Source: an uncultured bacterium
GTDB taxonomy: Bacteria > Verrucomicrobiota > Lentisphaeria > Victivallales > UBA1829
Assembly (NCBI GenBank): GCA_902802585.1
Contig: CADCMR010000003.1
Location: 42,394 to 106,393 of the forward strand
Reading direction: 5' to 3'
Length of the DNA stretch: 64,000 nt
The notes under the pieces are model-generated. The model was not told the origin of the DNA and did no database searches. It saw only the letters and a program-made list of their open reading frames with translations. Of this stretch, positions 11,546-51,338 are shown piece by piece. A program made the translations under genes and the position numbers. Numbering within the stretch: position 1 is the stretch's first letter; every line of letters starts with the position of its first letter.

Positions 11546-13044
11546 AACGGACACGATTTTTCGGAATGATCCTCGCCGCCGCGGCGGGATTGCTGGTTAT
11601 GCTCGTTCTGAACGCCTGCCAGCCGGACGCGGTCGGCTCGTACCAGTCGGCTCTGACGCCGACGGAAACGATCCTCAGCCGGGCGACCAACCGTTCCCTG
11701 GCATACGAGGGCGTCCGCCGGAATCCCGTGATCCTGATCCACGGACTGCTCGGCGCGCGCCTGGAGGATCCGGCGACCGGAAAGGAGTTCTGGGGGACGT
11801 TTTCGCCGACGCTGCCGGACCGCGAGAGCTTGAAACTGCTGTCCGTGCCGATGAGCTGGGGAAAGCCCTTGCGCGAGCTTTCCAACAACACGCGGGCGTC
11901 GTTCCTGCTGGACTCCGTTTCGGTCAGCCTGATCGGACTGCATTTCTCCATGTCCGCCTACGGGCCGCTGGTCGACACGATCCGGCAGGCTGGCTATGTG
12001 CAGGAAGGCTCGAAGGAGCACCTTGAGGACGGCCGCTGCCCGACGTTCTTCGTGTTTTACTACGACTGGCGGCGGAGCATCGCGGAAAACGCCATGGAAC
12101 TGGGAAAATTCATCCGCGCCAAACAGGAGCTGCTGAGCGGGGAATACCGCGTCCGCTACGGCGCTTCGCCGGATCCCGTGCGGTTCGACCTGATGGGGCA
12201 CAGCATGGGCGGGCTGATCGCGCGGTATTACATGCGGTACGGGGAAACGCCCCTGCCCGGCGAGGGCGCGCCCGACCCCGCGATCACCTGGGCCGGCGCG
12301 AAAAACGTCGGCAAGCTCATCCAGATCGGAACGCCGAACAGCGGCTATCTGGACACCGTCATCGAGCTGGTGAACGGACTGCGGCTTCAGCCGGGTGCGC
12401 CGCTCTACCCCGCCGCCGTGATCGGGACCTTCCCGTCCTTCTATGAAATGATGCCGTTCCCGCAGTTCGCCGCGGTCCGGAAAACCGTTCCCGGCAAGAC
12501 CGAGGAGGAATCCATCGCCCGCGGGGAGGCGGTCGACCTGTATGACCTGGACACGTGGATCCAATATGACTGGGGGCTCGCAAATCCGGACTGCGACGCC
12601 GACCTGCAATGGCTGCTGCCGGACGTGAAGACCGCGACGGAACGGCGGTACGTCGCGCTGGAACACCTTCAGAAATGCCTGAACTCCGCGAAACGCATCG
12701 CGTCCATGCTGTCCACGCCCGATCCGAAGGATTCCGACGTCTTCCAAATGATCTTCATCGGGGACTCCGTGCCGACGTCCTCGCTCGCGCTGGTCGATGA
12801 AAACGGCGGCCTGCGCGTGGTCCGGTACGATTCCGGCGACGGGAAAGTGTCCGCCGTGAGCGCGCGCGCCGACCTGCGCAATCCGGACAATCCGGGTCCG
12901 TGGGGACCGAGGATGGAGTCGCCCGTGCGCTGGAAGGGCGTCATCCACGTGAGCGGGGCGCACATGGGCATCACGGTCGCGCCGGACTTCCTGCACAACA
13001 TGCGGTTCTATCTGGTGCAGTTCCCGGATATGGACGAAGAATGA
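11542..13044 (+). CDS. Lipoprotein alpha/beta hydrolase (LCAT/PGAP1-like lipase/acyltransferase)
   Basis: Lipobox LNAC, oxyanion ILIHGLLG, YYDWRRS, nucleophile GHSMGG, GTPNSG, GDGKV, HMGI. Confidence 0.8.
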   Translation: MKRTRFFGMILAAAAGLLVMLVLNACQPDAVGSYQSALTPTETILSRATNRSLAYEGVRRNPVILIHGLLGARLEDPATGKEFWGTFSPTLPDRESLKLLSVPMSWGKPLRELSNNTRASFLLDSVSVSLIGLHFSMSAYGPLVDTIRQAGYVQEGSKEHLEDGRCPTFFVFYYDWRRSIAENAMELGKFIRAKQELLSGEYRVRYGASPDPVRFDLMGHSMGGLIARYYMRYGETPLPGEGAPDPAITWAGAKNVGKLIQIGTPNSGYLDTVIELVNGLRLQPGAPLYPAAVIGTFPSFYEMMPFPQFAAVRKTVPGKTEEESIARGEAVDLYDLDTWIQYDWGLANPDCDADLQWLLPDVKTATERRYVALEHLQKCLNSAKRIASMLSTPDPKDSDVFQMIFIGDSVPTSSLALVDENGGLRVVRYDSGDGKVSAVSARADLRNPDNPGPWGPRMESPVRWKGVIHVSGAHMGITVAPDFLHNMRFYLVQFPDMDEE

Positions 13045-24478: not shown

Positions 24479-24889
24479 TTATTCTCCGGTCTGCCCGGAT
24501 GCATCGTTTCCAAGGGAATTGCGAGTGTCCTGTTCTAGGTCGGTCCGGACGAGCCCGACGGCGTCCGCCAGACGTTCGGCGGTCCCGATGTAATTGATCG
24601 TGACCTCATGCGAGACGGAGGCGGAATTGAAGATGGCAGGCGAGATTCTCCGGCGGTACTGAAGCGCGTATGTCCCCTCCGGCGCGCTCGCGTAGTCACC
24701 CGTGACGATCGTGCTTTTCAGCACGGGCGCCGCCGTATCCGGATCGACGCCGACGCGCTGGATGGCGACCGTGCCGCTTCCGGACAGGGATTTCTCCGCG
24801 AGTCCGCCGAGAGCCGTGTTGACGCCGGAACATCCGGTGAACACGGCAGCCGCGACAGCGAGGACGAAATGCATAACAAAACGAATCAT
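24479..24889 (-). CDS. Phage lipoprotein (possible spanin-like)
   Basis: Lipobox AVFTGC after a hydrophobic signal; last gene of the cassette. Confidence 0.55.
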   Translation of the reverse strand: MIRFVMHFVLAVAAAVFTGCSGVNTALGGLAEKSLSGSGTVAIQRVGVDPDTAAPVLKSTIVTGDYASAPEGTYALQYRRRISPAIFNSASVSHEVTINYIGTAERLADAVGLVRTDLEQDTRNSLGNDASGQTGE

Positions 24890-24911
24890 GGCTGGACTCC
24901 TTTATTTGTGG

Positions 24912-25142
24912 TCATTTATTGAAAAAATCCTTCATTCCGGCAAGAAGCGCGGCGCAGACCGCCCCGATGGCAAGCGTAATGAATGCTTTCAAAGCGGTTT
25001 TCCGTCCCGTCTGGAACGCCTCCGCCAGCGAACGGAGCGTGTCGGCGGTCTTCGCGTCGATCCCGTTCGGACAGCCGTGATCATACGAGGCGAGGATGTC
25101 GGTGAAAATGGCGGCGATCTCGTTTTTGTCCTGGTCTGTCAT
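24912..25142 (-). CDS. Small C-terminally anchored membrane protein (holin-like position)
   Basis: MTDQDKNE...FITLAIGAVCAALLAGM; ATGA coupling with the upstream gene. Confidence 0.5.
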   Translation of the reverse strand: MTDQDKNEIAAIFTDILASYDHGCPNGIDAKTADTLRSLAEAFQTGRKTALKAFITLAIGAVCAALLAGMKDFFNK

Positions 25143-25528
25143 GGACGCGGTCTCCCGTTCAGATAAGCGAACCAACCAAAGACTTGGCAGACGAAAGCGG
25201 CGAAAAACCCCATCATCATGCACGCGGGCCGACAGTCGTAGACGGCTTCAAGCATGACGTTTGCGGCGAGATGCAGATTGGAAAGCGTGAATCCCCGGTA
25301 CGACTTGTCCGGCAGGGAGTATTCCCAGTCGTGGATCATCGCGGATGCCTCCAGCGGACGCAGCAGCCATGTGAGGATATGGCGGAACCAGGCGGGCCAG
25401 CGGTCCGGTCCGACGCCGTTGCATGCGGCGGCAAGTACGGAACCGGACGCAGCCCAGAACGATTCCGGCGCGAACGCTCCGAACTCATTGCAGAATGCAC
25501 GCAGGAATTGAGCGCGGGACGGAGTCAT
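25139..25528 (-). CDS. DUF1353/prokaryotic phospholipase A2-like phage protein
   Basis: CNGVGP and IHDWEY motifs (His-Asp dyad with Tyr). Confidence 0.55.
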   Translation of the reverse strand: MTPSRAQFLRAFCNEFGAFAPESFWAASGSVLAAACNGVGPDRWPAWFRHILTWLLRPLEASAMIHDWEYSLPDKSYRGFTLSNLHLAANVMLEAVYDCRPACMMMGFFAAFVCQVFGWFAYLNGRPRP

Positions 25529-25530
25529 GC

Positions 25531-25950
25531 TTAGGTCCGCTCCTCGGCCGCAAGTTCCCACGCACGGTAAAACCACGCAGGTTGCCCAAGCCCGATCTTC
25601 GCCCCTTTGTACTTGCATTCCTCGTTCATCTCCATCCAGCGCAATGCGAGCGCATACGCCGTCATCGGGTCGTCGTGCGCGGCCCGGCTGTTGTTGAATG
25701 TGACGACCGCCTCAAACCCGCCGGTGAAAGACGAATCGCCGATGAACCGCCCGATTTCATCGCAGAGCGCACGGAACTTTGCCGCCGCCCCGGCGAAATC
25801 TTCCTCCGGCGTCGGGCTTCCGTCGTCATTGATGGTACCGCCAAGCGCCAGGAATCGTTGTTCCGTCATCGGCGAAACCATTCCCGCGCCCGTTTTCAAC
25901 GGATCGGGAAGTCTGTCGTATGTCTTCCCTTCAAATTCGTACTGTTTCAT
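25531..25950 (-). CDS. Hypothetical phage protein downstream of the fibre gene
   Basis: 139-aa ORF, coherent with operon spacing; no recognisable motif. Confidence 0.6.
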   Translation of the reverse strand: MKQYEFEGKTYDRLPDPLKTGAGMVSPMTEQRFLALGGTINDDGSPTPEEDFAGAAAKFRALCDEIGRFIGDSSFTGGFEAVVTFNNSRAAHDDPMTAYALALRWMEMNEECKYKGAKIGLGQPAWFYRAWELAAEERT

Positions 25951-25972
25951 TTTCTGTTTCCTGTCTTGTTTG

Positions 25973-28903
25973 TCACTGTCCGATGATGCTGATCAGGCCG
26001 CCTTCAATCACGATCTGCTGCGATTCGCCCGAGACCGCGCTCACGGTGGATGTGCCTTCGGTGGTTTCCAGCTCCCACGGACCACGGTCGCCTCCATCCT
26101 CCAGAGGCGGCACGGTCACAGTAGCTCCGTAAATGCGGCCGAGGTTGGTGATGGTCGAGCCGGTCACGGCAAGGTCGCTGAAGTAGCCGCTGGACACACC
26201 ATTGCTGCCGATGATCGTCACGACCGCGCCGGCAGGAATTGTGATGGCACCGCCGGGTTCGATACTGGACGATAGAACAACGGATGCCCCCGACGACATT
26301 GTGACCTTCCCGGCTGACCCGGAAATACTCTGTATAACATTTGATCCAGCCAATGCAATCTCCGCTCCTGAACCCTCTTGGAAAAAACTAATCTTTCGAC
26401 CTTGTTCAAAGGTGCAATCTGTAAATTGAACATAGGGCGCTCCACCAGCGAGCGAAATCTCTGGCTTTGTTGTAGTCGCAGAGAGCACAGAACATCCGCT
26501 GAAAAACGCACTGGCATGAGTTATACCGACAGCAGCACCATGAGCGGTATTCGTGCAAGTATTATACTGGAAAGTACATCCATTAAGAGTGGCGATGGCC
26601 CCAGTATGCACGAAGAGAGCGCCGCCTATGTTGTTTGCATGATTCCCGATGAATGAACAATTGTCAAACCGTGCAGAGGTTGTTCCGCCTCCAATTTGGA
26701 AAGCCCCGCCATTGTCAACGGCGGATGCGGATGCATCTCCGCCGCTGTACGTAACGCCGCTTGCGGCAGCTGTAGTACCGGAAGCAACGGCAACACGCTT
26801 CCCGCCGAGGTTAACAACCGCCGTATTCGTCAACTTGGCCCCTGCGGGCAGGGTTACGTTATCCATCGTGTAACTGCCGGACAGCGTGCCGGAACTGTAG
26901 AGAACTGTCGCACCACCCTGCTCGAACGTAATGTTCCCGCCTGGAATAATCGGTGCAGCGTTCGCATTTCCGGTTAGGTCGATGGTAGCGCCGCTCGTGA
27001 GGGTTAAGGTTCCCGTTGAATCACCATATAGCACACCAACGGGGAGCCCGTTCGTTCCGACGAAATTGATCCTGCCGGAGTTAGCTACTCTCATTGTTAG
27101 ATCAGTAGAACTGTTCCCAGTAAAGGTACAGTCTTTAAAGGTACCTACCGCACTCGTATAACGCACTGATACTTGAGAAGGGGTGGCAGTAGCTGTTGTG
27201 CTGTTACCAGAAAACACACAACCCGAAAACAGACAACTCCCACTTTCCGAGATAAACACACCGCCGCCGCCGTCGGTCGCGGTCGTTGTATTCCCGGTAA
27301 ATGTGCAGTTTGTGAAGACATTGCCAACACTGCGGAAAGCAGTGTAAGCGGGCGTGCCATATGCGTTTGTAAATTTTACATTGGAAACAGATGCGACTTT
27401 GTATGCTTGAACGGTGTAAGGATTTGCGTTTCCACCATAATCAATCACACTTGCGCTTCCCTCGCCGACAACCTTCTCGACCGCCAAGCCGCCCCCACTC
27501 ACCGCAACAGTCGAGCCTGCGGGAATGTAGGCATCGCCGAGCGTGAGCGTACCGGATGTCACATTGACGTTCTGAAGCGCGCAATTCGCCACGGTGAAAG
27601 AACCGGATGCGATCGCGACGTCGCCGGTCACCAGGGTGTCGGCATATCCGTTGCCGACCAGATGCTTCGTCGTCGAGACGGTCGCGCCGCCCAGATTCAG
27701 CGGCACGCCAGCCAGCGAGTCGTTTACGGAGATGTATTCCTGCGAGGCAACCGCCGCATCGGCAAGGCCGTAATAGAGGCTTCCTGCCGTCGTACCGCTC
27801 GAAACGTTCACGATGTATCCAGCGATGTGGTCTTCGACGCTGATGATCGCCAGGTTGTCATGGAATCTCACGGTGCAGTTGTTGACCGCATCGGGCTCCA
27901 GCGGCTGGGAAAGGACCACGTTTTCGCCCGTCTGGATGTAGCCGGTATTCGCCACGAAGATTTCGGCATGTGCCTCAAGCCCGAAGGTACGGCTGCCGCC
28001 GACAGGGTTCTCCCGGTTCAGCAGCACCTTCGCGTTATTCGCGACGGCATGGATCTCGTAGGCTTTGCCCGCGCTGAGGACGACCGTCGTGGTCTGGTTG
28101 GCGGACGCGGTAATCGCGGGTTCAATTGCAAAGTAGCGTGCCTGGTCGACCGTGGATCCGCTCACGAGCTCCATGCGGTAGCCCGCCGCAAGGTTGTCCT
28201 GTTTCGCGTCCAGTGCCGCCGCCAGACCGGTGACCGCGCTCTGCGGGACGTCGGCTGTACTGATGATCCCTGAGCTCGTGACAGAAATGCCGACACCCCC
28301 GTTTGCAGGAGTCAGCTTGTCCTGTTTCTCCGCCGCCGAGGAGGAAACCGCCGACTGAATGATCTGTTCGGCATAGGAGCGGGTCAGGAACCCCTCATCC
28401 ACCGCGTTCGGGGCGCCAAGTCCCGCCACGCGGTTCCGGACCTTGAAATCCTCAATCTGGAGGACAAACACGGCATGATCCTCGTTGTCGTACCCGACGA
28501 GCTCTCCGGTCAGACCGGGCTTTGTCGCCTCATTGCCGAGCCATGCCGCCAGTTCCTCCGTATTCATGTCGGATATCGGGATCACAAACTCCGTGAAACT
28601 CGTGGTTTCGCCGTTGACAGTATCGGTCACGGTCTGGACCGAAATGCCGCCCTCGTCCGCGACCAGCTTGCATGACGTGCTCCGGTCGAAATCGGCGTCC
28701 ATGCTCCAATGCCATTTCGCAATGCCGTTCAATGATGCGATCGGATAGGGCGTCGGCACCTCGACGTCCGCGAACAACCTCATCCGCAGGCATACGGCGA
28801 CTCCGATCGTCAGGACCGGCGCCTCCGAGAGATGCATGTTCGAATAGTCCCGCACCATCCCGAGCGTCTCCTTCGCCGCCGCGTAAAAAACTATATTCTG
28901 CAT
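25973..28903 (-). CDS. Putative tail-fibre/adhesin with right-handed beta-helix (GGA/FxxN) repeats
   Basis: FTNCTFTGN, FSGCVFSGN, DNGGAFQI, FDNCSFIGNHANNIGGALFV; KQDKL/KQDNL fibre-type heptads in the N-terminal part. Start set at ATG 28903. Confidence 0.65.
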   Translation of the reverse strand: MQNIVFYAAAKETLGMVRDYSNMHLSEAPVLTIGVAVCLRMRLFADVEVPTPYPIASLNGIAKWHWSMDADFDRSTSCKLVADEGGISVQTVTDTVNGETTSFTEFVIPISDMNTEELAAWLGNEATKPGLTGELVGYDNEDHAVFVLQIEDFKVRNRVAGLGAPNAVDEGFLTRSYAEQIIQSAVSSSAAEKQDKLTPANGGVGISVTSSGIISTADVPQSAVTGLAAALDAKQDNLAAGYRMELVSGSTVDQARYFAIEPAITASANQTTTVVLSAGKAYEIHAVANNAKVLLNRENPVGGSRTFGLEAHAEIFVANTGYIQTGENVVLSQPLEPDAVNNCTVRFHDNLAIISVEDHIAGYIVNVSSGTTAGSLYYGLADAAVASQEYISVNDSLAGVPLNLGGATVSTTKHLVGNGYADTLVTGDVAIASGSFTVANCALQNVNVTSGTLTLGDAYIPAGSTVAVSGGGLAVEKVVGEGSASVIDYGGNANPYTVQAYKVASVSNVKFTNAYGTPAYTAFRSVGNVFTNCTFTGNTTTATDGGGGVFISESGSCLFSGCVFSGNSTTATATPSQVSVRYTSAVGTFKDCTFTGNSSTDLTMRVANSGRINFVGTNGLPVGVLYGDSTGTLTLTSGATIDLTGNANAAPIIPGGNITFEQGGATVLYSSGTLSGSYTMDNVTLPAGAKLTNTAVVNLGGKRVAVASGTTAAASGVTYSGGDASASAVDNGGAFQIGGGTTSARFDNCSFIGNHANNIGGALFVHTGAIATLNGCTFQYNTCTNTAHGAAVGITHASAFFSGCSVLSATTTKPEISLAGGAPYVQFTDCTFEQGRKISFFQEGSGAEIALAGSNVIQSISGSAGKVTMSSGASVVLSSSIEPGGAITIPAGAVVTIIGSNGVSSGYFSDLAVTGSTITNLGRIYGATVTVPPLEDGGDRGPWELETTEGTSTVSAVSGESQQIVIEGGLISIIGQ

Positions 28904-28904
28904 A

Positions 28905-30005
28905 TCATATCTCTTGTTTGAAATTGTAATTGGCTTCATAATCGTAGACGACCCGGACATTCAGCGCCTGCCATCCGCGGATGATACTGTCCGGCGCTGT
29001 GTCCGACCCGCCCAACCCCGATGCCGAACCGTACCCCCACGAGGCGAAGACGCCGCCGCTCAGGACAAACGTATTCGCCCCGGAGGATACGGTTGTGCAC
29101 AGAGGATCGAAAATGTATGTGTTGTATTCGTCCTCCACCGGCTCCCCGTCCTCGTTGCGTTCGCGCGGATCGACCGCGTCGAACATGACCCTGCCGTTGG
29201 ACGCGGCGGGACACCCGTGATGCGCCGGCGCAAGCCGCACCGGTTCCCAGGCGGAGTTGACCAGCCAGCGCTTTTGCGGATCGGTAAGACCCGTATATTC
29301 GTAGCTCAGGACGCAGGTCAACGGAGTATAAAATCCGCCGAATTCCGCCTCGTAAAAACTCCAGCTCTGAATCCCGTCGTAGGCCGCCTGCGGCGAAGAG
29401 CCGAATCCGTCGAGCTCGGGCGGATACGCATGGCGCATCATGATTCCGCCATCGACGACACTCACATACCGGAGCAGTTTCAGCATCCTGGTCCGCTGAG
29501 AGGCCCATGCGGCGTTCAGGCAGACCTGAAACGAGCCGTCGACGGGAATCTTCGGGTAAGGGGTATTCTCCGGAACAGTTTCCGGCACGATTAAGGGTTC
29601 CGACAATGCCGACGCCAGGTTCTCCAGCGAACCGCAAGCCATATTCCCCGCGCTGTCCGAGAAAAAGCGCGAACTGTGCTCCTCCAGCGTGTGAATGAGG
29701 AACGCGTCGAAACCATGCATGAACGAAATACTGCGGAAAAATCCCCAGACTTCGTCGTATGCGTATTCTTTTCTGACTTCCCGGAACGGAATCTCCCGCG
29801 GATCGGCATTGTCGTACCATTCCCCGGTGAGGATGTGCGCCAGGCGGTTTTCCATGACAGCGGACGTGCCGGACGAGGTGCAGCTTTCGTGAAATTCGGG
29901 ATCCACGGCGTCCCGGCGTTCGCAGAGTGCGGATACCAGTCCGCGCATCACCGGAAGCGGCGTGCACAACGTCGGGTCGTTCAGATGATAGTCGTCCCAG
30001 CTCAT
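28905..30005 (-). CDS. Hypothetical phage (tail-region) protein
   Basis: MSWDDYHL...; TGATG coupling with the upstream gene. Confidence 0.6.
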   Translation of the reverse strand: MSWDDYHLNDPTLCTPLPVMRGLVSALCERRDAVDPEFHESCTSSGTSAVMENRLAHILTGEWYDNADPREIPFREVRKEYAYDEVWGFFRSISFMHGFDAFLIHTLEEHSSRFFSDSAGNMACGSLENLASALSEPLIVPETVPENTPYPKIPVDGSFQVCLNAAWASQRTRMLKLLRYVSVVDGGIMMRHAYPPELDGFGSSPQAAYDGIQSWSFYEAEFGGFYTPLTCVLSYEYTGLTDPQKRWLVNSAWEPVRLAPAHHGCPAASNGRVMFDAVDPRERNEDGEPVEDEYNTYIFDPLCTTVSSGANTFVLSGGVFASWGYGSASGLGGSDTAPDSIIRGWQALNVRVVYDYEANYNFKQEI

Positions 30006-30577
30006 CAGATCCATCTCCCGCAGATTTCGATGTCGCCTCCCATGTGCGCCTGCGTTACGGTCCCGATCGAGCTGACGTGCGCCAGCGTCCTGTACCACCC
30101 CTGTGCGCTGGTGACGGAGGCGGACAGGCTGTTCGCGAATCCATACACCAGGGCGGGGGGCGTGGCGGCAGTGTCGTAATACACGGTCAGGTAGATTTCG
30201 GCGGGGGTTCCCGGTGTGACGGGGACCGTGCCGACAGGCATGTTGTGAAACGTATTTCCGATGCGGATTTCCCCTGCGTACGCTCCGGACGGATCCGAGC
30301 CGTTGAAAACACGCGCCGACGTCCCGCCGACGAGCTCCACGGCGAATGCCCCGGCATAGCCCGATGCGACCGGCGGTTCCGCGGCAGCCGCGCCCGGGCT
30401 TTCCGGTTCCGGACCGTTCCAGCGGATGAGCTTGCCCGCTCCGGTGTCGAGGACGTCCAGGAGCGGGGTGGCGGACGCGAGCTTGTCAAGCTGTTCCACG
30501 GCATCGGCAAGCGCGTTGAACTTCTCGCGGAGGACCTCGAAAACGTTCTCTCCCGATTCCAGTCTCGGCGCGATCAT
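30005..30577 (-). CDS. Hypothetical phage (tail-region) protein
   Basis: MIAPRLESGE...; ATGA coupling; beta-rich composition. Confidence 0.55.
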   Translation of the reverse strand: MIAPRLESGENVFEVLREKFNALADAVEQLDKLASATPLLDVLDTGAGKLIRWNGPEPESPGAAAAEPPVASGYAGAFAVELVGGTSARVFNGSDPSGAYAGEIRIGNTFHNMPVGTVPVTPGTPAEIYLTVYYDTAATPPALVYGFANSLSASVTSAQGWYRTLAHVSSIGTVTQAHMGGDIEICGRWI

Positions 30578-31356
30578 GCGTTGTTTCCCTCCGAAGATTC
30601 GTACAGCGTGGTGTCCCAGCCCGCCGGATCGGGCGACGCCTTGTAGATGACTTTTGCGATGTAGCGGCGTCCGTCCGGATGGATCTGCCCGCCGAGGTTC
30701 AGCCAGTTCGTCACGTCCACGCCGAAATCGCCGAGCGCGGGCGTGCCGATCTTCCCGGCGCACGCGGCTGCGGCCCACGAGGCGTCCCGCAGCGTGCAGT
30801 GACGACTGAACTCCGTGATGGTATAGCTCGGCATCAGCCACGTTTCACTCGTTTTGAGCGGCATCTTCAGCAGGTGCCACGATTCGCCGAGCGAGGCGAC
30901 GGACTGCGGCGTCTTCACCCAGCGGTAGTTCACGCGCTGCGCCGCGGTCAGCACGGGATCCGTCGCGGTCGCCCACCACGTCGGCACCTCGTCCGTCCCT
31001 TTTGCCGCCAGGCAGTAGTTCCAGTTCGTCCGGTAGCCGGAATGGCGCTCCAGCGGGACGGACATGACAGTCACGTCCAGGGTATGTTCCTTCGGACCGT
31101 GCCGCCCGATCAGGAACCGCAGGTTGCTTCCGGCGTTCAGGTCCTCCCAGTTGAGCTCGATCTCGTAGACCGGGCCGCCGACCTGGCGGGTTCGCCAGGA
31201 GACAAGTTCGTACTCGCCTGTCCTGTCCCGGTCGCCGATCGTCAGACGGGCGCTCCGCTCCTCCACTTCCTCCCGCGTCCCGTAATAGATTTCGCGGTAG
31301 GAGGCCCCGCCGGAATCCCTGCCCCGGACGACGCTTTTGTGTTTCAGTTTCAGCAT
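30574..31356 (-). CDS. Hypothetical phage (tail-region) protein
   Basis: 260-aa ORF with RBS GGGAGGG; W/Y-rich, no named family recognised. Confidence 0.6.
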   Translation of the reverse strand: MLKLKHKSVVRGRDSGGASYREIYYGTREEVEERSARLTIGDRDRTGEYELVSWRTRQVGGPVYEIELNWEDLNAGSNLRFLIGRHGPKEHTLDVTVMSVPLERHSGYRTNWNYCLAAKGTDEVPTWWATATDPVLTAAQRVNYRWVKTPQSVASLGESWHLLKMPLKTSETWLMPSYTITEFSRHCTLRDASWAAAACAGKIGTPALGDFGVDVTNWLNLGGQIHPDGRRYIAKVIYKASPDPAGWDTTLYESSEGNNA

Positions 31357-31370
31357 GTTCCCTCCCCGGT

Positions 31371-31517
31371 TCAGTCGACCGTTCCGATCTCATCGAGTTT
31401 TTCCGCGATCTCGTCGAGCTCCGCGTTGATCTGCCTCAGGATCTCCATGATGATCTCCGCTTCCGGATCGTATTCGTTCTCCGGCGTTTCCGCCGCGGCT
31501 GCCGTTTCTCCATTCAT
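31371..31517 (-). CDS. 48-aa acidic coiled-coil ORF (possible remnant)
   Basis: GGAG RBS; ILRQINAELDEIAEKLDEI heptads. Confidence 0.45.
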   Translation of the reverse strand: MNGETAAAAETPENEYDPEAEIIMEILRQINAELDEIAEKLDEIGTVD

Positions 31518-31570
31518 GTCAATCTCCGTTGTTCTTCGTTTTGTTCTGATTCCGCTGTGCTGCCGAAGCA

Positions 31571-31903
31571 TCAGAGCCCCAGCACTTCGGCGTCGTCGCT
31601 GCGCTCCGCTTTTACCGCGAACCGCTGGTATTTCCCTTTCTCCGCGGTCAGGACCGCCGACGTGATGAGGAAAGTCTTTTCCCGGTACGTCAGTGTTTCT
31701 CCGGCTTCCGGGATGTTGCCGCCTTCCACGAGTCCGTCGAACTCAAGCTCCGTGCGGCGGCTTGTGGCGGCAAGCTTGTCCTTCCTGCCGTCTTCCCCGT
31801 GGACGGACACCGTCCCGGTCAGCGTCGAGCGCACGCGGATGTTCCGCATGGCGATATCGAATCCGCCTCCGTCCCACCCGGAAATCAATCCTGTTGCGCG
31901 CAT
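31571..31903 (-). CDS. Small beta-rich phage neck/tail protein
   Basis: 110 aa directly after the gp36-like adaptor. Confidence 0.5.
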   Translation of the reverse strand: MRATGLISGWDGGGFDIAMRNIRVRSTLTGTVSVHGEDGRKDKLAATSRRTELEFDGLVEGGNIPEAGETLTYREKTFLITSAVLTAEKGKYQRFAVKAERSDDAEVLGL

Positions 31904-31904
31904 G

Positions 31905-32324
31905 TCAGTAGCCCTTCATGGTTTCGCGGGTGAAAACCGGCTCGTCACAGGCGACCGCCGCGAATCCCTTTCCGCGCAGGGATTCCGCCGCGCCGGGCAG
32001 AACCAGCTCGCCGGACGCAGTTTTCTCCAATGATGCACGCACGTGGGCGATGCGCATTTTGAGCTTTTCCGGCAATGCGTCGCCCGCGCAGCGCACCCGG
32101 GCGCGTTCTTCGCACAAGGTCAGGTTCCAGTCCCGGAGCAGCGCGCCGGCGCGTTCGGACATGACCGGCGTTTCATAACGGCATCCGGCGGCGGCGTCGA
32201 TTTCCGCAGCGGCGGCGTCCAGGTCCGCCTGCGCCGTCGCCGTGCCGGTCTCGTCGGTGCCGTACAGCCCCGCGTAATCCTGACCGAGGCGCACTTTCAA
32301 TTCATTGATCGTGGCGTATGCCAT
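31905..32324 (-). CDS. Mu gp36-like (DUF1320) head-tail adaptor
   Basis: MAYATINELKVRLG...AAAEIDAAAGCRYETP...LEKTASGELVL pattern of the gp36 family. Confidence 0.8.
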   Translation of the reverse strand: MAYATINELKVRLGQDYAGLYGTDETGTATAQADLDAAAAEIDAAAGCRYETPVMSERAGALLRDWNLTLCEERARVRCAGDALPEKLKMRIAHVRASLEKTASGELVLPGAAESLRGKGFAAVACDEPVFTRETMKGY

Positions 32325-32374
32325 GAGGCGATCCTTTCTTTTCATAGTTGTGGTTTGAGCCGCAAAAAACCGGA

Positions 32375-32496
32375 CCGGGGGGAGGACTGGGAATCCGTGC
32401 GACGGAGATTCTGCCTATCTGAGCAGGCAATAACCTTCCGCCTCCGCGCCAAGGAGATGGGATTCACGGCGGATTCCCGCGTCCTGTCCCCCCCGG
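32375..32496 (-). other. Long nested inverted repeat / predicted structured RNA followed by a U-tract
   Basis: Arms CCGGGGGG-AGGAC-T-GGGAATCCG (32375-32397) and CGGATTCCC-GC-GTCCT-GT-CCCCCCCGG (32470-32496); inner hairpins TGCCT/AGGCA and CTCC/GGAG. Confidence 0.65.
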
Positions 32497-32524
32497 CCGT
32501 CAGCCTTTTGTTCCGGCAGGGGCG

Positions 32525-33427
32525 TCAGCCCGCGGCGGTGCCGCCTCGTCCCAGCAGGTGCGGGAAGAGCGCGGCGGCGTTGCCGTACGCCTCGGCGCCG
32601 AAGAGGATCCTGCCGTCCATGAAGACGTTTTCGTCGTTCGGCTGGTTCAGGATCGTGAGGGCTGCTTCCTTGTTTTTCAGGACCAGGATGGGCTTCAGCG
32701 CGCCGGTGAAACGTCCCAGGAACCAGTAGTTGGCATTGGTCCCGGTGAGGCGCGGGCTGACGACCAGTTTGACCTTATCCTTGTGCGGATTGGCGAATTC
32801 CTGGTCGCTGGCGTCGCGGTATGTGTCGGAGTACAGGATCTCGCGGGCGGTGTCCTCCAGCGCGGGACCGACGATCAGGTGTGTCGGACGCGTGTTGACG
32901 GGCTGGCCGTTATGCCCGCGGAAGGAGTACATCTGAGTGAAGAACGAACCGAAGTTGGCGAACGTCAGGGCGTTGGACGTGACGTTGTTGATCGTGCTCG
33001 GGCCGTACTTGCGGCTGTTACTGTAGAACGCGGCGCCGTCGATCCAGTTCGGCGGATTCACCAGCGCCTCGGTGAAGAGCGTGTCCCACAGCTGTTCGCC
33101 CGCCTCGCCCATGGCGGCGACGAGCGTGCCGTAAATCCCCCAGTTGTCGCTTTCGACGTCGCGGACGGGAATCGCCACAGTGTCCTCCCACGGACGTTCC
33201 ACGAGGCGGATCTTGTGCGTGGCGAGGTTCTTGATCTGGCGCGGACCGAGCCATTCGCGCATTCCGGCGAAGGCGTCGAGGAACGGGATTTCCATGGCGG
33301 TGTGCTTCGGGTCACCCTCGATGTCGGCGAGGTCGCGGTAAATCGTCTCCGCGCCTTCGACCGCCTGTTTGAACTTCAGGTTGAAGCTGGTGCGCATCGC
33401 GGACAGCGTTTCATGATTCAGTTCCAT
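32525..33427 (-). CDS. Mu gpT-like major capsid protein
   Basis: MREWLGPR..KNL, WEDTVAIPVRDVESDNWGIY, WIDGAAFY, LIVGPALE..A, FGAEAYGNA. Confidence 0.9.
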   Translation of the reverse strand: MELNHETLSAMRTSFNLKFKQAVEGAETIYRDLADIEGDPKHTAMEIPFLDAFAGMREWLGPRQIKNLATHKIRLVERPWEDTVAIPVRDVESDNWGIYGTLVAAMGEAGEQLWDTLFTEALVNPPNWIDGAAFYSNSRKYGPSTINNVTSNALTFANFGSFFTQMYSFRGHNGQPVNTRPTHLIVGPALEDTAREILYSDTYRDASDQEFANPHKDKVKLVVSPRLTGTNANYWFLGRFTGALKPILVLKNKEAALTILNQPNDENVFMDGRILFGAEAYGNAAALFPHLLGRGGTAAG

Positions 33428-33482
33428 GTTCGTTTTCCTTTCTCAGGTTGGTTTGTCTGTTTTCGAGCTCGGACAACTGGAC

Positions 33483-33893
33483 TCAGTGTGCGCCGTTGCC
33501 GATTTCCGCCACCACGCCGTCCGGAAGGACGTCGCGTACGATGCCGGCGACCACGGCAGCCGTGCCGCCCGTCAGAGTGACGGTCTGGTCGTCCTTCACG
33601 TAGCAGGTCTTGTTCAGGTCGCCCACGGCAAACGCGCCGCTGCTGACCGGACTGTAGAGGAACATGCCGGAACGGGTCCTGACGGTTTCGCCGCCGGACG
33701 CCGTGTTTTCGGCGCGGCCGACCACTGTGATGGCGCCCGCGGACGTGGCGGGGATGGCGTTTCCGCTGGAGTTGACGGCGGTAATGCCTCCCGCGTAGAC
33801 GGTGCTGCCCGACGCGACGGTGAATTCACGGGTGTAGTGGATGCCGCCGGCGGCGATTTCCCTAGTGTCTCTTGCTTCTGTAAGTGCTGACAT
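33483..33893 (-). CDS. Capsid cement/decoration protein (DUF2190-like)
   Basis: TVYAGGITAVNSSGNAIPA...VVGRAEN...GDLNKTCYVKDDQTV; sits between protease and capsid. Confidence 0.75.
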   Translation of the reverse strand: MSALTEARDTREIAAGGIHYTREFTVASGSTVYAGGITAVNSSGNAIPATSAGAITVVGRAENTASGGETVRTRSGMFLYSPVSSGAFAVGDLNKTCYVKDDQTVTLTGGTAAVVAGIVRDVLPDGVVAEIGNGAH

Positions 33894-33985
33894 GCTTCAT
33901 GTCTCCTTTTGTTCTGGGCTGTTCTGTCCGCCGATCCCGATCGAACAAACAGAAAATCCCTGTGATTGTTTTGCGCCGCGGCTTC

Positions 33986-35056
33986 TCAGCCGTGCATGGC
34001 GCGCTGATAATCGTCTTTGTCGAATCCGAATCTCCGGATCATTTCCTCGTCCGCCGCGCTCAGGCTCCGCTTCACCGCGTGCCGTCTGTCCGGCGCAAAC
34101 GCCATGCGGTCCGGCACTACGGCGGGCGCATGCTCCAGGTAGGACGCCAGCACGGCGCAGTCCTGGCTTTTCGCCCAGCCTTCCAGCGCGTGCGTCAGCT
34201 TCCCCTCCTGAAGCCCCTGTTCGATCAGTTCCGCCTTGCGTTTTTCCTCGGCGGCACATGCCATCGTGTCGAGTTCCCGCCGCAACGCGTCCGCCTGCCC
34301 GGCGCGTTCCTTCACCACCTCAAGTGCCGCTGACATGGCTTCGTCGGGTTCGTCGTCCGCCACGCCCAGACCTTCGCGCAGAGCGGCAATGGCGTCCGCC
34401 TTCGCCTCGATCGCGGCCGCCGTACGCTCGAAAGCGCGTTCCTCGTCGTCCTCGCCGGTCAACACGATCTCATTCCAGACCGTCTTCCCGAGCAGACGTC
34501 CGAGCGCGCGTTCGATCGGGTCCTGAAGCCGTTTCAGCTCAATGGCGTTTCGTCCGACGTCCTCCGGATCCGCGCCGTCCTCCTCGCCGCCCGCCGCCAG
34601 GACATCTTCGCAGTTCAACGCAGGTTCGTTTTCCATCGCAACGCTCGTGATGCGGATCGGTCCTTCCTTCAGACCGCGGATCACAGGCGAACAGTACCGG
34701 AAGATTTTCTCCTTCAGCAGCTCGTATGCGCCCGGCGTCCATTCGGCGCGGATGCGCAGCTCGTCGCCCTCTCGAAACAGCGTCCCAAACCCCATCGCCG
34801 CCACGCCCGAAGGAATCAGCCGCAACGCTTCGTTCTCCTCCACGCCGTGCTTCTCCGCCAGGATGTGGAGGTAATGGTTCGAGTCAATCGGGATCGCCTC
34901 GCCCTTCTTCGCCTGATACGTCGCGATGGCGTCCAGGTCCTCCACGCTCAATCGCAGTTCATAGTCCTTTCCGTTTTTCACGAGCCGGTTCACGCCCGCA
35001 CGCAGCAGAGTCCATTCCTCAGGGACTCCGTTCGCATCCTGTTTTACAGTGCTCAT
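33986..35056 (-). CDS. Mu gpI-like prohead protease/scaffold
   Basis: IPIDSNH (His), FRYCSPVI (Ser), SVAMENEPAL; coiled-coil scaffold C-terminus. Confidence 0.85.
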   Translation of the reverse strand: MSTVKQDANGVPEEWTLLRAGVNRLVKNGKDYELRLSVEDLDAIATYQAKKGEAIPIDSNHYLHILAEKHGVEENEALRLIPSGVAAMGFGTLFREGDELRIRAEWTPGAYELLKEKIFRYCSPVIRGLKEGPIRITSVAMENEPALNCEDVLAAGGEEDGADPEDVGRNAIELKRLQDPIERALGRLLGKTVWNEIVLTGEDDEERAFERTAAAIEAKADAIAALREGLGVADDEPDEAMSAALEVVKERAGQADALRRELDTMACAAEEKRKAELIEQGLQEGKLTHALEGWAKSQDCAVLASYLEHAPAVVPDRMAFAPDRRHAVKRSLSAADEEMIRRFGFDKDDYQRAMHG

Positions 35057-35120
35057 TTCCTGCTCCTATGTTTTTGTTTGTCTTGTCCCCTTGGGGATAG
35101 TAAAGCTTCTTCCGTGCGCA

Positions 35121-35210
35121 GTGAAGGATTTGTCCTCCGTGCCCGAGCGAAGCCGGGCACAACCGCGGTGAAGGACTTGTCCTCCGTGTCGTAGCGGAGC
35201 ACGGCACTAC
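35121..35210. repeat. Two tandem 47-bp-period REP-like double-hairpin units
   Basis: GTGAAGGA(T/C)TTGTCCTCCGTG starts at 35121 and 35168; stems GTGCCCG/CGGGCAC around AGCGAAGC. Confidence 0.75.
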
Positions 35211-35228
35211 TCGACACACTCTGTGTGC

Positions 35229-36617
35229 CTACCAACCGAATATCTGTTCCTCTACGCTCCTCTGATGTAGCGGCGGCAGCGGATCGATCCCGCACGGAGC
35301 CTCATTTCCGCGTCCCGCCGCGTGGACTGCCAGCGCGAGCGCCCAGAACCGGTCCGAATGTCCGGATTCGTCGCGTTCGGCGTCGTAACGGACGTTCCCG
35401 GCGGCGGTCACGCTCCGCACGATTTTGTGCAGGTCGTGACGCATCACGTCATCCGCCAGAATCCGTATGCCTCGCGACTCGAACGCCGCCCGGACCGGCA
35501 TGGCGAGCGAGGCTTTCACCGGGCCCGTAAATGTCACGCTCTCCACGCGGTATTTCCCGTGGCGTTCCTGCATCTCCTCCGCCAGCATCATCCCGATCCC
35601 CGTCGCGTCGATGCAGAGGCGTTCCAGCCGGGCGTCGTCGAGGCGGCGCGCCAGGGCGTCCGCCTGCATCCGGAACGGCATGTTCTCCATGACTTCGTAT
35701 CCGCTCTGCCAAAGGATGTCTCCGATGCGCGTCAGCTCGAAATACACCCCGACGTCCTTCTTCCGTCCCACGTCGTAACCGGCGTACCGGATCGCCTTCG
35801 GGTTTCCGTTCAACGCCTTTTCCAGGTCGGAGGCGTCGTTTTCGCACGCGCCGATCATGCCGTAGTCCAGCAATGCCGCGCCCGCCTCCGCCGCCTCGAC
35901 CATGTACTGCGTCCGCCAGGCGTCTTCCGTGCGGCATTTCGCACGCATCATTTTCAGCCATTCCTCGCGGCTCAGCTCGCTCCCGGTCACAGCATTGACG
36001 CGTTCCACGAATCCTTCCTCCACGGCGTCCAGGATGCTCGTCCGGTGGACGCTCCATCCCATCGCATTCGCGCCGTGTTCCGCCTCATGTAGCATCCGGC
36101 AGAACGGCGATTCGCTGCTGCCGTCCACACTCAGCGCGGACACCATTTCCAGCTGTCCGCCCCACGTGGTGCACGGCAGTGCCATGTCGATCACCTTTCC
36201 GCTGTCCTTGTGCAGGTCCGCCTCGTCGATCAGGATGTCCCCGCCCTTCCCGGCGAACGCTTCAGGCGTGCTGGACAGGCTGATGACCCGGCTGCCGTTG
36301 CCATATTCCGCCGTATACGCCCGGATCCCGTGCAGCGGGTCGATGACCGAGGCATTCTCTCCGGCGAGACCGCGGCAGACCACGTTCGCCGCCGCCGCCC
36401 ACTTCGCGATGTAGTCCGTGATGAATTCGCGGGCGGTGAACTCGTCGCGGCTGGTCACCCACTGCACCGTCCCCGGATGCCGCAGGCACTTGTCATTCAC
36501 GCGGAAGCTCGTGGCGTACGTGATGCCGATCCGGCGCGATTTCGCGTACAGCTTCATCCGCGCATCGTCCAGGATCCAGCGCCTCTGGTACGGCAGAAAA
36601 TAATCCGTCAGCTTCAT
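35229..36617 (-). CDS. Mu gp28-like terminase large subunit
   Basis: LPYQRRW, Walker A KSRRIGIT, Walker B ILIDEA, nuclease GYDVGRKKD / IDATGIG / HSDRFWALALA. Confidence 0.92.
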   Translation of the reverse strand: MKLTDYFLPYQRRWILDDARMKLYAKSRRIGITYATSFRVNDKCLRHPGTVQWVTSRDEFTAREFITDYIAKWAAAANVVCRGLAGENASVIDPLHGIRAYTAEYGNGSRVISLSSTPEAFAGKGGDILIDEADLHKDSGKVIDMALPCTTWGGQLEMVSALSVDGSSESPFCRMLHEAEHGANAMGWSVHRTSILDAVEEGFVERVNAVTGSELSREEWLKMMRAKCRTEDAWRTQYMVEAAEAGAALLDYGMIGACENDASDLEKALNGNPKAIRYAGYDVGRKKDVGVYFELTRIGDILWQSGYEVMENMPFRMQADALARRLDDARLERLCIDATGIGMMLAEEMQERHGKYRVESVTFTGPVKASLAMPVRAAFESRGIRILADDVMRHDLHKIVRSVTAAGNVRYDAERDESGHSDRFWALALAVHAAGRGNEAPCGIDPLPPLHQRSVEEQIFGW

Positions 36618-36949
36618 CCTTCCTCCGTCTCAGCCTTCATGTTCATGGTTAATTGATTCCATCGAACGAGGGTCCATGCGGACGGCGCCGGGGCGTCATC
36701 CCGCCTTCATTTCCACGCGGTTTCGCATCTTTCTTTCCCTTTTCCAGGCTTTCCTTCCGGATCTTCCCGACCGCCGGAAATACCGCTTCCGGCTCCGGAG
36801 CCGCCGCACGGACCCTTCAACCTAAACGTGATTTTCCGACTTCCGGACGGAACAAATATGCAACTATCAGTCATTTCTATCGGTTGAGTGTGACAAGGCG
36901 TTTTTCGCTTCCTGTTCCGGCGCAATCCCGGCGACGTCACGTTCCCATC

Positions 36950-36978
36950 TTGAAAATAATGTCAGATGGAGCTATATT
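36950..36978 (+). promoter_or_regulatory. Sigma70-type promoter for the BASS transporter-uvrA genes
   Basis: TTGAAA-17 bp-TATATT. Confidence 0.6.
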
Positions 36979-37033
36979 ATTTCCTCCTTATTTTCGCGCC
37001 CGCGATCCATTCTTTTTTTTAAGGCTTCATCTT

Positions 37034-37996
37034 ATGTGGAAAGCTCTCAGCCAGCCCGCAAAAATCATCATCCCGCTCTTCATCGGACTCTGTTTCCCCT
37101 GGATGTCCCGCGCATCCTTCATGGTCCGCTGGCTGCTCGTCGTCATGCTCCTGAACGCCTGCCTCGGCATCAAGTTCAGCGGCCTGAAAATCCGCCTGTA
37201 CCACTGGTATCTGCTCGCCGCCAACCTCGTGATCGGCGTGCTGGCGTGGCTGATCGCCTGCTGGTGCTGCGGCGGCAATACCGAGGTGGCGAAAGCCGTC
37301 TTCTTCACGGCAATCTCCCCCACCGCCACCGCCGCCCCCGTCGTGATCGCGTTCCTGGGCGGAAACGTCGCCACGGTCCTGATGGGGTTCCTGATCAGCG
37401 ACCTCGGCATCTCGCTCTTCCTGATCGGGCTGCTCCCGCTTGTCACGGGACAGCTGAGATGGGAGTTCGTCAACGAGGTCTTCCTGAACATCGCGTTCGT
37501 CATGGCGCTTCCTGTTTTCCTCTCGCGCGTCCTGCTGCGTTTCTGGCCGTGGCTCGCGGACTTCGCCAAGTACAAAATCGCACCGCACGCGCTTTGGGCA
37601 TGGTCCGTCATGCTCCTCATCCTCGGCGGCATGGCGCGCAAGACGTTCGACGAGCAGGAGGTCAGCGCCGTCGCCATCCTTCTCCAGATCGGCTGCGCCA
37701 CGCTCGCCGTCTGCGTCCTGAACTTCTTCACCGGATGGCTGATCGGTCCCCGCCGCTGCAAGCTCGAGTCCAGCCAGCTCCTCGGTCAGAAGAACACCTC
37801 TTTCACGATCTATCTGGCGATCACGTTCGCCTCTCCTGTCGCCGCCCTCGGTCCGCTGTTCTATATCCTCTGGCACAACAGCTGGAACGCCATTCAGATG
37901 TTCCAGTTCGAGAAACGCCGGCAGCGCAAAGCGGCTCGCTTCATCTCTTCCTCCCGCCCGGACGCTTCCGCCGGGGCGGAACACATCACTCCCTGA
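37034..37996 (+). CDS. Bile acid:Na+ symporter (BASS)-like transporter
   Basis: About 9 TM segments, ISPTATAAPVV, SQLLGQKNTSFTIYLA, YILWHNSWN. Start set at ATG 37034, downstream of the promoter. Confidence 0.75.
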   Translation: MWKALSQPAKIIIPLFIGLCFPWMSRASFMVRWLLVVMLLNACLGIKFSGLKIRLYHWYLLAANLVIGVLAWLIACWCCGGNTEVAKAVFFTAISPTATAAPVVIAFLGGNVATVLMGFLISDLGISLFLIGLLPLVTGQLRWEFVNEVFLNIAFVMALPVFLSRVLLRFWPWLADFAKYKIAPHALWAWSVMLLILGGMARKTFDEQEVSAVAILLQIGCATLAVCVLNFFTGWLIGPRRCKLESSQLLGQKNTSFTIYLAITFASPVAALGPLFYILWHNSWNAIQMFQFEKRRQRKAARFISSSRPDASAGAEHITP

Positions 37997-38022
37997 ACCT
38001 TCACGAAACGGACGCGGTCAAC

Positions 38023-49201: not shown

Positions 49202-49813
49202 ATGACGATGGATTGGAAACAGCAGTTCAAAGTTCATGATCTCAGCTTCCGGGAGACCATTATCATTCTCCTGGTGGTCGCGGTTTGTGAGGTTATCCTG
49301 ATGTTTATCTTCCCCTGGCGGGGGCCGGTTTGGAATGCAGTCACTCGCTGCGGGATCAACCAAAGGTCGATCTACAGAATCATGAGCAGGGTTCCCGACG
49401 GGGACGAATTCGAGCTGCCGCCCGAATGGACCGTCGCCGACCTGATCCGGGAGGCGGTCAGGAAAGACCGTCAATCGCCCCACCCCATGGAGGAACATTA
49501 TTTTATCTGCCGGAATATCAGTAAAGTACGCGAATGCGATTTTCCCTATGACCTTCGGCCCTATCTGGTGTTTCCGGTGTCCGCCTCGGTCGTGTTCGAC
49601 GAATCGCTTCAGAAGCCCGTTCCGATCCTCATGTGCTGGCCGGGCGCGCATGACGGCAAACACTGCTCGATGGTCCTCTACTCCGATGGAACAACGAAAC
49701 CCCTGACTCCGGAAGAGGCGGAAAAGCTCGTTGCCGAGTATTCGCCCGTGCCGCTCGAACTGAAACCGGAAACAACCGATGAAAGCAGTGTCCGGTCCGG
49801 CGACGGCGAGTAA
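49202..49813 (+). CDS. Pilin-like membrane protein, array paralogue 1
   Basis: TM, C..N, WTVADLIRE, YLVFP, PVPILMC.PGAH, VLYSDG, EEAEKLV. Confidence 0.8.
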   Translation: MTMDWKQQFKVHDLSFRETIIILLVVAVCEVILMFIFPWRGPVWNAVTRCGINQRSIYRIMSRVPDGDEFELPPEWTVADLIREAVRKDRQSPHPMEEHYFICRNISKVRECDFPYDLRPYLVFPVSASVVFDESLQKPVPILMCWPGAHDGKHCSMVLYSDGTTKPLTPEEAEKLVAEYSPVPLELKPETTDESSVRSGDGE

Positions 49814-49873
49814 ATCGCCGCCCGGAATCATTCGTCCAGACATGCTTTTTTTCATCTTTTTCTGTTCTTTCTA

Positions 49874-51336: not shown

Positions 51337-51338
51337 GT

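Follow-up and report, generated by a model that had tools for sequence, protein, structure and literature searches.

A Mu-like virion cassette of 15 genes lies in a 64-kb stretch of DNA from an uncultured rumen bacterium (contig CADCMR010000003.1; this whole stretch is referred to below as the window). Together with three genes found at a second chromosomal locus in its close relatives, the cassette probably constitutes a domesticated, two-locus particle system that lacks a tape measure, would be unable to propagate itself, and most likely resembles a gene transfer agent (GTA). The gene set is chromosomally fixed, vertically inherited, intact and under purifying selection in a clade of rumen Victivallales (Lentisphaerota). 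It comprises a complete-looking set of head, packaging and neck genes, along with a tail region that has neither tube nor tape measure, and its unusual feature is that the portal gene and a terS-like gene stand apart from terL and the capsid gene.

A Mu-like cassette at a fixed chromosomal site

The cassette occupies positions 24479-36617 of the window, on the (-) strand, where analysis of the window's open reading frames (ORFs) finds all 15 co-oriented frames open. Its order is terL, protease/scaffold, small virion protein, Mu gpT capsid, gp36-like adaptor, g6-g10, fibre and four small genes (Table 1). Five of these genes (encoding TerL, the protease/scaffold, the virion protein of 136 amino acids (aa), the capsid and the adaptor) have family support in Pfam and PHROGs, and the Mu-like virion cassette proposed in the initial annotation, which was made from the letters alone, is real. 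Public gene calls on the same DNA agree on the products from gp36 to the fibre (139, 110, 48, 260, 190, 366 and 976 aa). The genes are tightly coupled, as first described, with ATGA overlaps at g8/g9 and g13/g14, a single TGATG junction and several spacings of no more than 1-2 nt. The protease gene, said to follow terL directly after ~170 bp, begins after a gap of 172 bp. The TerL motifs read as intact (KSRRIGIT, ILIDEADLH, DVGRKKD, CIDATG and GHSDRF) recur in the TerLs of Mu-like prophages that have portal and gpF genes and appear to be full.

Host genes stand on both sides: dfx (Desulfoferrodox, 2e-16 in Pfam), roo and gyrB on one, a membrane gene (37034-37996) and uvrA on the other. While dfx and uvrA had been named correctly, the ‘BASS’ label given to the membrane gene has no Pfam support, its product being a 320-aa membrane protein without a match. 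The true starts of uvrA and the membrane gene are 38023 and 37034, respectively; the GC-rich DNA also contains spurious long ORF extensions at 36653-37033 and 37036-38022, which run into the terL leader and the membrane gene. The remainder of the 64 kb is housekeeping in character (2-oxoacid dehydrogenase, ExbBD, recA, gyrB, roo, dfx, uvrA, ftsK, MlaA and others). Base composition, initially called host-like, is so over the head genes but not at the fibre end, where GC falls to 0.555-0.60. A link to Desulfovibrio and Dd1, hinted at by dfx, was dropped, as the relatives of the capsid gene all belong to Victivallales/Lentisphaeria; these relatives identify the host as a rumen bacterium of that group despite dfx.

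Searches of the 64 kb with Pfam and PHROGs returned no transposase, repressor, late activator, sheath, tube or tape-measure families, no integrase, no replication or primase module, and no further phage families beyond the cassette; the window's unannotated genes had no PHROG matches. Using proteins of a Victivallaceae prophage (L015, see below), tblastn recovered from the window neither a portal, gpF or tape-measure gene nor pseudogene fragments of them. No homologue of the terS-position gene came up there by tblastn either. The absence of portal, terS, gpF, tape measure, transposase and repressor asserted at the outset is therefore upheld for the window. So is that of integration marks, as no flanking direct repeat stood out and no att site or target duplication was convincing.

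A capsid-gene search of one-genome-per-species bacterial collections gave 16 loci, 15 of which, from 14 rumen Victivallales/Lentisphaeria metagenome-assembled genomes (MAGs), carry the cassette; the 16th is L015. In all 14 MAGs the cassette is complete and its gene order unchanged. Its upstream neighbours are uvrA and the membrane gene in nine loci and the window, and dfx-roo follows downstream in ten loci and the window. Wherever both flanks can be read in these 14 species-level genomes the site is the same, bounded by the same host genes; of the remaining contigs, three have a different upstream side and the rest stop short of the flanks.

No cassette orthologue contains an in-frame stop. 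The ratio of nonsynonymous to synonymous substitutions per site (dN/dS), estimated by the Nei-Gojobori method for all pairs of nine genomes, ranges over the cassette genes from 0.05 for the major capsid protein (MCP) to 0.28 for the lipoprotein, far from the value near 1 that had been named as a sign of decay. Synonymous divergence differs along the cassette. It is 0.30 for the MCP gene and 0.28 for the decoration gene, equal to that of the host flanks (0.28-0.36; uvrA dN 0.006), whereas terL, protease and gp36 have dS values of 0.46-0.53, ~1.5-fold higher. In the fibre gene, g12 and g13, a hypervariable block of lower GC (25139-28903 and its orthologues), dS reaches 1.3-2, a pattern suggesting that this recognition end has been exchanged or diversified. 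Two divergence classes of g13 among otherwise close species (dN 0.14-0.16 versus 0.35-0.40) likewise suggest allelic exchange there.

No free or predicted virus matching the cassette was found: IMG/VR yielded none, g10 had no phage match, and the best capsid in INPHARED is only ~30% identical, the cultured phages at that level being Mu and Mu-like phages (the D3112/B3 group, Mx4 and FP_Mushu). The best complete-looking relative among the genome loci is L015, whose capsid is 45% identical. A complete phage from which the cassette could be derived by simple deletions was thus looked for and not recovered.

A second locus with the portal gene

A portal search with a single sequence returned only that sequence, and an alignment-based search was needed. 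The L015 portal, used as a protein-database query, revealed a subfamily of short (~400 aa) Mu portals, and an alignment of these run against the genome collection gave 58 loci, nearly all from Victivallales. Thirteen of the 14 cassette-bearing MAGs have one portal locus each (locus 2), on a contig other than that of the cassette (locus 1). Locus 2 is syntenic in 13/13, with fructose-bisphosphate aldolase, RNase HII, a 636-aa secreted protein, the terS-position gene, the portal gene, a 138-aa gene, a 250-aa gene and ftsW. The initial annotation had proposed that portal, terS and tail genes lie elsewhere in the genome; this proved right, in these 13 genomes, for a Mu-type portal and a terS-position gene, whereas the tail genes stay in the cassette and a connector-like gene has moved with the portal.

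All three locus-2 genes are free of stops, with dS values similar to those of the adjacent host genes. Besides its L023 counterpart (Table 1), the 206-aa terS-position protein has relatives in L020, L018 and L015, and the 138-aa connector-like protein is 28-33% identical to the product of the gene after gp36 in unsplit cassettes (see below) and 25% identical to that of L060. Neither the locus-2 genes nor their neighbours occur in the window or at the cassette loci, and no transposase, repressor, late activator or tape measure was detected by Pfam in the ten L057 genes around the portal (~4.5-17.7 kb of a 21-kb locus). The two loci together comprise 18 genes and ~14.4 kb. In RUG11954, where the contigs bearing them measure 248 and 293 kb, they are, by contig positions, at least ~159 kb apart, so that no particle would carry the whole system and it could not propagate as a virus.

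Related cassettes that are not split indicate what the two loci hold between them. L060 and L020/L023 share the order terS-like, terL, portal, protease, small virion protein, MCP, gp36, connector-like and tail genes; these compact cassettes have a TerL of 463 aa, a portal of ~400 aa and a 137-aa gene after gp36, and are without gpF. Loci 1 and 2 partition this set in interleaved fashion, with zero genes duplicated and zero missing: locus 2 has the terS-like, portal and connector-like genes, and locus 1 has terL, protease, virion protein, MCP, gp36 and the rest. The portal gene thus sits between terL and protease in the unsplit cassettes and the connector-like gene after gp36, whereas neither gene is present in the window. 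Proteins of the unsplit cassettes (L060; L020/L023/L025-L027) are 31-64% identical to those of the window. Their neighbourhoods vary. Visible flanks consist of host genes, which border L060 and L020 on the upstream side and enclose L023.

The L060 cassette (~12 kb; JAFQLP010000024.1, 6135-19122), which has host genes upstream, is 46% identical to the split system in MCP, 52% in portal, 47% in gp36, 31% in g8 and 36% in g13. Its tail layout, also without a tape measure, runs gp36, connector-like, ~106 aa, ~58 aa and a g8 homologue, ending in a g13 homologue. L060 is a possible second member of a GTA-like family. A divergent gene for a sigma factor of the extracytoplasmic function type lies directly beside this cassette and is a possible regulator. 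L018 (CBDRGO010000006.1, 6720-11206) represents a differently split or truncated arrangement, in which only a terS-like gene, a terL-like gene and the gene for a 401-aa portal stand together, followed by SASA and GH116 genes.

The trio of terS-like, portal and connector-like genes recurs in a more distant genome, at L074 (DCIG01000045.1, UBA1732; 9190-11556), at 67, 64 and 38% identity and in a different neighbourhood; no cassette was found in UBA1732 with the patterns used. The portal-less junction of terL and protease is already present in L013, a relative whose MCP is 80% identical. Taken together, the trio in UBA1732 and the junction in L013 indicate that the split is older than the 13-species group.

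The two loci also diverge together. In Mantel tests on third-codon-position distance matrices from ten genomes, the head genes of locus 1 and the genes of locus 2 are correlated at r = 0.85 (p = 0.0002), while each locus correlates with host genes at r = 0.62-0.64 and two sets of host genes with each other at 0.43. When the most divergent genome is added, the correlation between head genes and locus 2 is 0.94. Recent block deletions in a cryptic prophage, which the initial annotation had kept as an option, are excluded by synteny, selection, the lack of a matching phage and the conserved portal locus, and on this sequence evidence the cassette is not a decaying prophage.

Victivallales often contain Mu-like prophages with related heads, so that potential helpers exist, and the cassette could instead be a helper-dependent satellite that takes its portal, along with other components, from an infecting Mu-like phage, or an anti-phage decoy that sabotages the assembly of such a phage, the locus-2 portal being irrelevant in either case. 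That some satellites encode their own capsids, as the capsid-forming phage-inducible chromosomal islands (PICIs) do, also counts in favour of such a role. However, satellites of the PICI type carry an integrase, replication or primase genes and att sites and vary in their place of insertion, whereas none of these components was found in the window, the position of the cassette is fixed across species, and its dS is host-like. In each cassette genome with a portal locus, moreover, only one of Mu type was detected, and this co-diverges with the cassette. We therefore consider a satellite or decoy very improbable.

Genes of the cassette and candidate cis elements

Table 1. Genes of both loci and candidate noncoding elements; positions are those of the window.
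Feature	Position	Strand	Size	Evidence and remarks
terL, large terminase	35229..36617	-	462 aa	Terminase_6C 9.8e-12; phrog_5909 1.9e-29; dN/dS 0.065
Mu gpI-type head protease/scaffold	33986..35056	-	356 aa	Mu-like_Pro 3.9e-24; phrog_328 1.4e-26; dN/dS 0.12
Small virion structural protein, possibly decoration	33483..33893	-	136 aa	phrog_1731 1.4e-20; dN/dS 0.24
MCP, Mu gpT family	32525..33427	-	300 aa	Mu-like_gpT 6.3e-40; phrog_371 5.1e-47; dN/dS 0.05
gp36-like head-tail adaptor	31905..32324	-	139 aa	Phage_Mu_Gp36 1.3e-05; phrog_195; dN/dS 0.125
g6, neck/tail protein	31571..31903	-	110 aa	no Pfam, PHROG or PDB match; dN/dS 0.13
g7	31371..31517	-	48 aa	public gene call of 48 aa; dN/dS 0.22
g8, conserved tail-region protein	30574..31356	-	260 aa	dN/dS 0.11
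g9, tail-region protein	30005..30577	-	190 aa	ATGA overlap with g8; no PDB sequence match; dN/dS 0.17
g10, tail-region protein, N-terminal part helical, C-terminal part beta-rich	28905..30005	-	366 aa	not a portal
Fibre/receptor-binding protein	25973..28903	-	976 aa	repeats; parallel beta-helix-like by eye; dN/dS 0.23
g12	25531..25950	-	139 aa	34-77% identity, tracks fibre; no family match
g13, C-terminal hydrophobic segment	25139..25528	-	129 aa	sequence
g14, C-terminal transmembrane helix	24912..25142	-	76 aa	phrog_10540 (function unassigned) 1.7e-04; dN/dS 0.06
Lipoprotein, last operon gene	24479..24889	-	136 aa	lipobox VFTGC; dN/dS 0.28
terS-position gene	locus 2		206 aa	40% identical to gene upstream of terL in L023; dN/dS 0.07
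Portal	locus 2		~400 aa subfamily	Portal_Mu 3.4e-71; dN/dS 0.12
Connector-like gene	locus 2		138 aa	dN/dS 0.20
Conserved 5' leader of terL	36669..36821	-	~155 nt	alignment of 11 species; 15-bp closing stem
Two tandem copies of double-hairpin repeat (family D3)	35117..35210	.	47 nt each	in terL-protease gap, where relatives have the portal
Long nested hairpin, then T-run, between capsid and gp36 genes	32325..32524	-		conserved in alignment of 13 sequences
Terminator-like hairpin after last gene	24445-24430			follows the lipoprotein gene

The MCP, which also matches Phage_capsid_4 in Pfam, is 95-98% identical across 12 species, and TerL is 64% identical to that of the unsplit cassette L020. The start of the gp36-like adaptor was placed at M8, as set by upstream stops in orthologues and by the public gene call.

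Downstream of the adaptor, no Pfam or PHROG family was found at the thresholds used for g6-g10, the fibre, g12, g13 or the lipoprotein, and a PDB sequence search with g6, g8, g9, g10, the fibre and the small virion protein gave no match. The unsplit relative L060 has a 106-aa gene at the position of g6. Many Mu-like elements of Victivallales, that of Victivallis vadensis DSM 14823 among them, have a g8 homologue (~30% identity) in the tail region; the AlphaFold model of g8 (predicted local distance difference test score, pLDDT, 41.5) is too poor for a fold search. By contrast, g10 is modelled confidently (pLDDT 83.5), and its model matches no solved structure, only one uncharacterised phage protein. 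A hidden portal among g8-g10 was considered and rejected, as profiles found no PDB sequence match and the g10 model resembles no portal or other solved fold.

The fibre is the most divergent product of the cassette (42-65% amino acid identity, dS ~2), is encoded in DNA of lower GC, and has no Pfam, PHROG or PDB sequence match. Because g12 varies together with it, g12 is possibly a fibre chaperone. The g13 protein is 36% identical to the product of the gene at the end of the L060 cassette, and g14, 87-96% identical across species, is holin-like by size and shape only. What had been described as a lysis-like trio at this end of the operon is indeed a set of three genes, encoding two small proteins with a C-terminal hydrophobic segment and a lipoprotein, but the lysis function is not borne out, no lysin domain having been detected.

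Four noncoding elements stand out. The terL leader is closed by the stem AGAGUCCGUGCGGCG / CGCCGCACGGACUCU; RNAalifold predicts 33 pairs, with compensatory changes in two closing-stem pairs and in four of the whole fold, and no Rfam family matches. It is a candidate cis-regulatory RNA or protein-binding inverted repeat. The 47-nt repeat between terL and the protease gene is present in zero to three copies at the same place in related species, with one copy elsewhere (L010:2366), and looks like a small mobile or expandable repeat; the idea that it is the scar of a lost portal gene was dropped in view of this copy number and the lack of any coding remnant. The terminator- or attenuator-like hairpin and T-run after the capsid gene would suit a difference in expression level between head and tail genes, and this element is probably a partial terminator that would set the ratio of head to tail expression. 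A terminator-like hairpin follows the last gene; it, the leader and the hairpin after the capsid gene are candidate elements of expression control.

Three other features of the window lie outside the cassette. Five tandem paralogues of ~200 aa at 49202-53141 (+), with an N-terminal membrane anchor and 26-37% mutual identity, have no Pfam or PHROG match and a GC of 0.55-0.57 against ~0.62 around them. GC drops sharply to 0.49 within 57000-59000, around a TraX-like gene (57308-57976). Two adjacent large genes at 9422-13044 (+), of 707 and 500 aa, are likewise without a Pfam or PHROG match.

Proposed function and known counterparts

If the system works as a GTA, the host would express both loci. 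Capsid and protease/scaffold proteins would come together on the portal from locus 2, and the head would then be filled with DNA by the terS-like protein and TerL, while the adaptor, the connector-like protein and g6-g10 would build a short tail without a tape measure, bearing the fibre at its tip. Particles would be released by the cell, perhaps aided by the small membrane proteins, and would most likely carry host DNA in the manner of GTAs. The arrangement may plausibly have arisen from two copies of a Mu-like prophage with complementary gene losses, or through several rearrangements of one copy.

Several observations weigh against this account. All of the genomes are metagenome-assembled, and the system is known here from genes alone. 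Locus 2 is inferred for the window's own genome from 13 close relatives rather than seen in it, and it had no match in one of the 14 cassette genomes, the assembly of which may be incomplete. Six tail-region proteins are without an identified fold or family and g8 modelled poorly, so that completeness of the tail is only putative; the tail may even be truncated, given that relatives such as the Victivallis vadensis prophage have, between a 237-aa gene and the g8 homologue, a 704-aa gene that the window lacks. With Pfam and PHROGs, no lysin domain, endolysin, recognisable holin or regulator was found in the cassette, and neither locus includes a regulator gene. Upstream of the two loci there is no shared motif beyond the ribosome-binding site and T-runs, which leaves their co-regulation unsupported. 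Finally, the lower GC and much higher dS of the distal genes, from the fibre to g13, point to exchange with other elements rather than to strictly vertical descent.

Prophage remnants are common, and some of these same observations (no regulator, lysin or shared promoter motif found; only MAGs available) would suit two unrelated, functionless and slowly decaying cryptic-prophage remnants that merely coexist. Such remnants would have to have kept 18/18 genes intact in 13 species at dN/dS values of 0.05-0.28, left no pseudogene fragments, divided the unsplit gene set exactly between them with neither overlap nor gap, and diverged in step (r = 0.85). We give this explanation hardly any weight.

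A third possibility accepts domestication but assigns the particle another task: a killer or adhesion particle, such as a PBSX-like one that packages host DNA without useful delivery, or a device serving some other host purpose. The hypervariable fibre and neighbouring genes, together with the two classes of g13, fit strain-specific targeting, and delivery and killing are inseparable by sequence, a caveat also raised for the GTA of Faecalibacterium prausnitzii (PMC12946183). However, with no sheath, tube or tape measure found, it is not a contractile killer of the tailocin type. DNA packaging also seems to matter, as TerL, the terS-like protein and the portal, with dN/dS values of 0.065, 0.07 and 0.12, are among the most constrained products of the system. 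We regard a killer or adhesion particle as rather unlikely, though likelier than the other alternatives. PBSX of Bacillus subtilis is itself a single-locus defective phage with a contractile tail that acts as a bacteriocin. Like PBSX, which is also mentioned in PMC12946183, the system described here is chromosomal, would package host DNA and would not propagate; it differs in having no sheath or tube genes.

The closest precedents in architecture are two multilocus GTAs. FpGTA I and II of F. prausnitzii, a gut anaerobe, are two operons ~125 kb apart without replication genes, the first with TerS, TerL, portal, scaffold and capsid, the second with baseplate, fibre and lysis genes (PMC12946183). 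FpGTA is considered podovirus-like and devoid of a tape measure, and it occurs almost throughout a genus; its particles and their ~9-kb DNA have been shown experimentally (PMC12946183). Compared by architecture only, the two systems are alike in being compact, phage-derived, spread over two loci and free of replication genes. The division of FpGTA, however, spares the head module, whereas here the cut runs through packaging and head, with terS-like, portal and connector-like genes on one side and terL, capsid, tail and fibre genes on the other. The host of FpGTA belongs to Bacillota and its particles have been seen, whereas the present system is from Lentisphaerota and known from genes alone.

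The second precedent is RcGTA of Rhodobacter capsulatus and its alphaproteobacterial relatives, a system of at least 24 genes distributed over five loci. It passes down with the host lineage under purifying selection, and its recognition loci have a separate history with virus-mediated transfer (PMC5026251). The present system resembles it in being multilocus, inherited and selected, and its variable fibre end parallels the RcGTA recognition loci. In RcGTA, terminase, portal, capsid and tail genes form one cluster, which includes a tape measure, and the capsid and portal belong to Pfam families other than Mu gpT and Portal_Mu, a comparison at the level of families and not of the proteins directly. 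Relative to RcGTA, the system would be an independent domestication in another phylum.

Its head families (TerL, Portal_Mu, Mu-like_Pro, Mu-like_gpT and Phage_Mu_Gp36) match those of phage Mu and the Mu-like phages (D3112/B3 group, Mx4, FP_Mushu). The Mu head genes stand at one locus in the order terS-terL-portal-gpF-...-protease-capsid, whereas here terL is followed by the protease gene, with the portal and terS-like genes elsewhere. In contrast to the Mu-like phages, the system shows none of the other features that define a functional Mu-like prophage: transposase, repressor and late activator are missing, as are gpF, sheath, tube and tape measure, and its genes are split and chromosomally fixed.

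Our literature search turned up no report of a GTA from Lentisphaerae or Victivallales. It is conceivable, and we propose it tentatively, that this is the first GTA-like system of Lentisphaerota (a member of the Planctomycetes-Verrucomicrobia-Chlamydiae, or PVC, group): an independent domestication of a Mu-like phage whose core packaging machine is, uniquely, split over two sites, perhaps by complementary loss in two prophage copies. The unsplit or differently split cassettes (L060, the L020 type and L018) would then represent a whole family of similar agents from bacteria of the gut and rumen. The related compact cassettes in other Lentisphaeria suggest such a wider family.

Few GTA families are known, most of them from Alphaproteobacteria. 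GTA-like packaging is common in the gut, where the gene clusters behind it are mostly unidentified (PMC12946183). The 18 genes described here add a concrete two-locus GTA candidate from a different phylum, in a rumen lineage not yet cultured, and population-genetic data support its domestication. For the annotation of prophages and GTAs, they indicate that phage cassettes which seem incomplete, ‘portal-less’ ones among them, can be whole systems once the genome is searched for the complement. The full prophage, the unsplit compact cassette and the split system also form a natural series in which to follow how a transposable phage may become an organelle-like device of its host.

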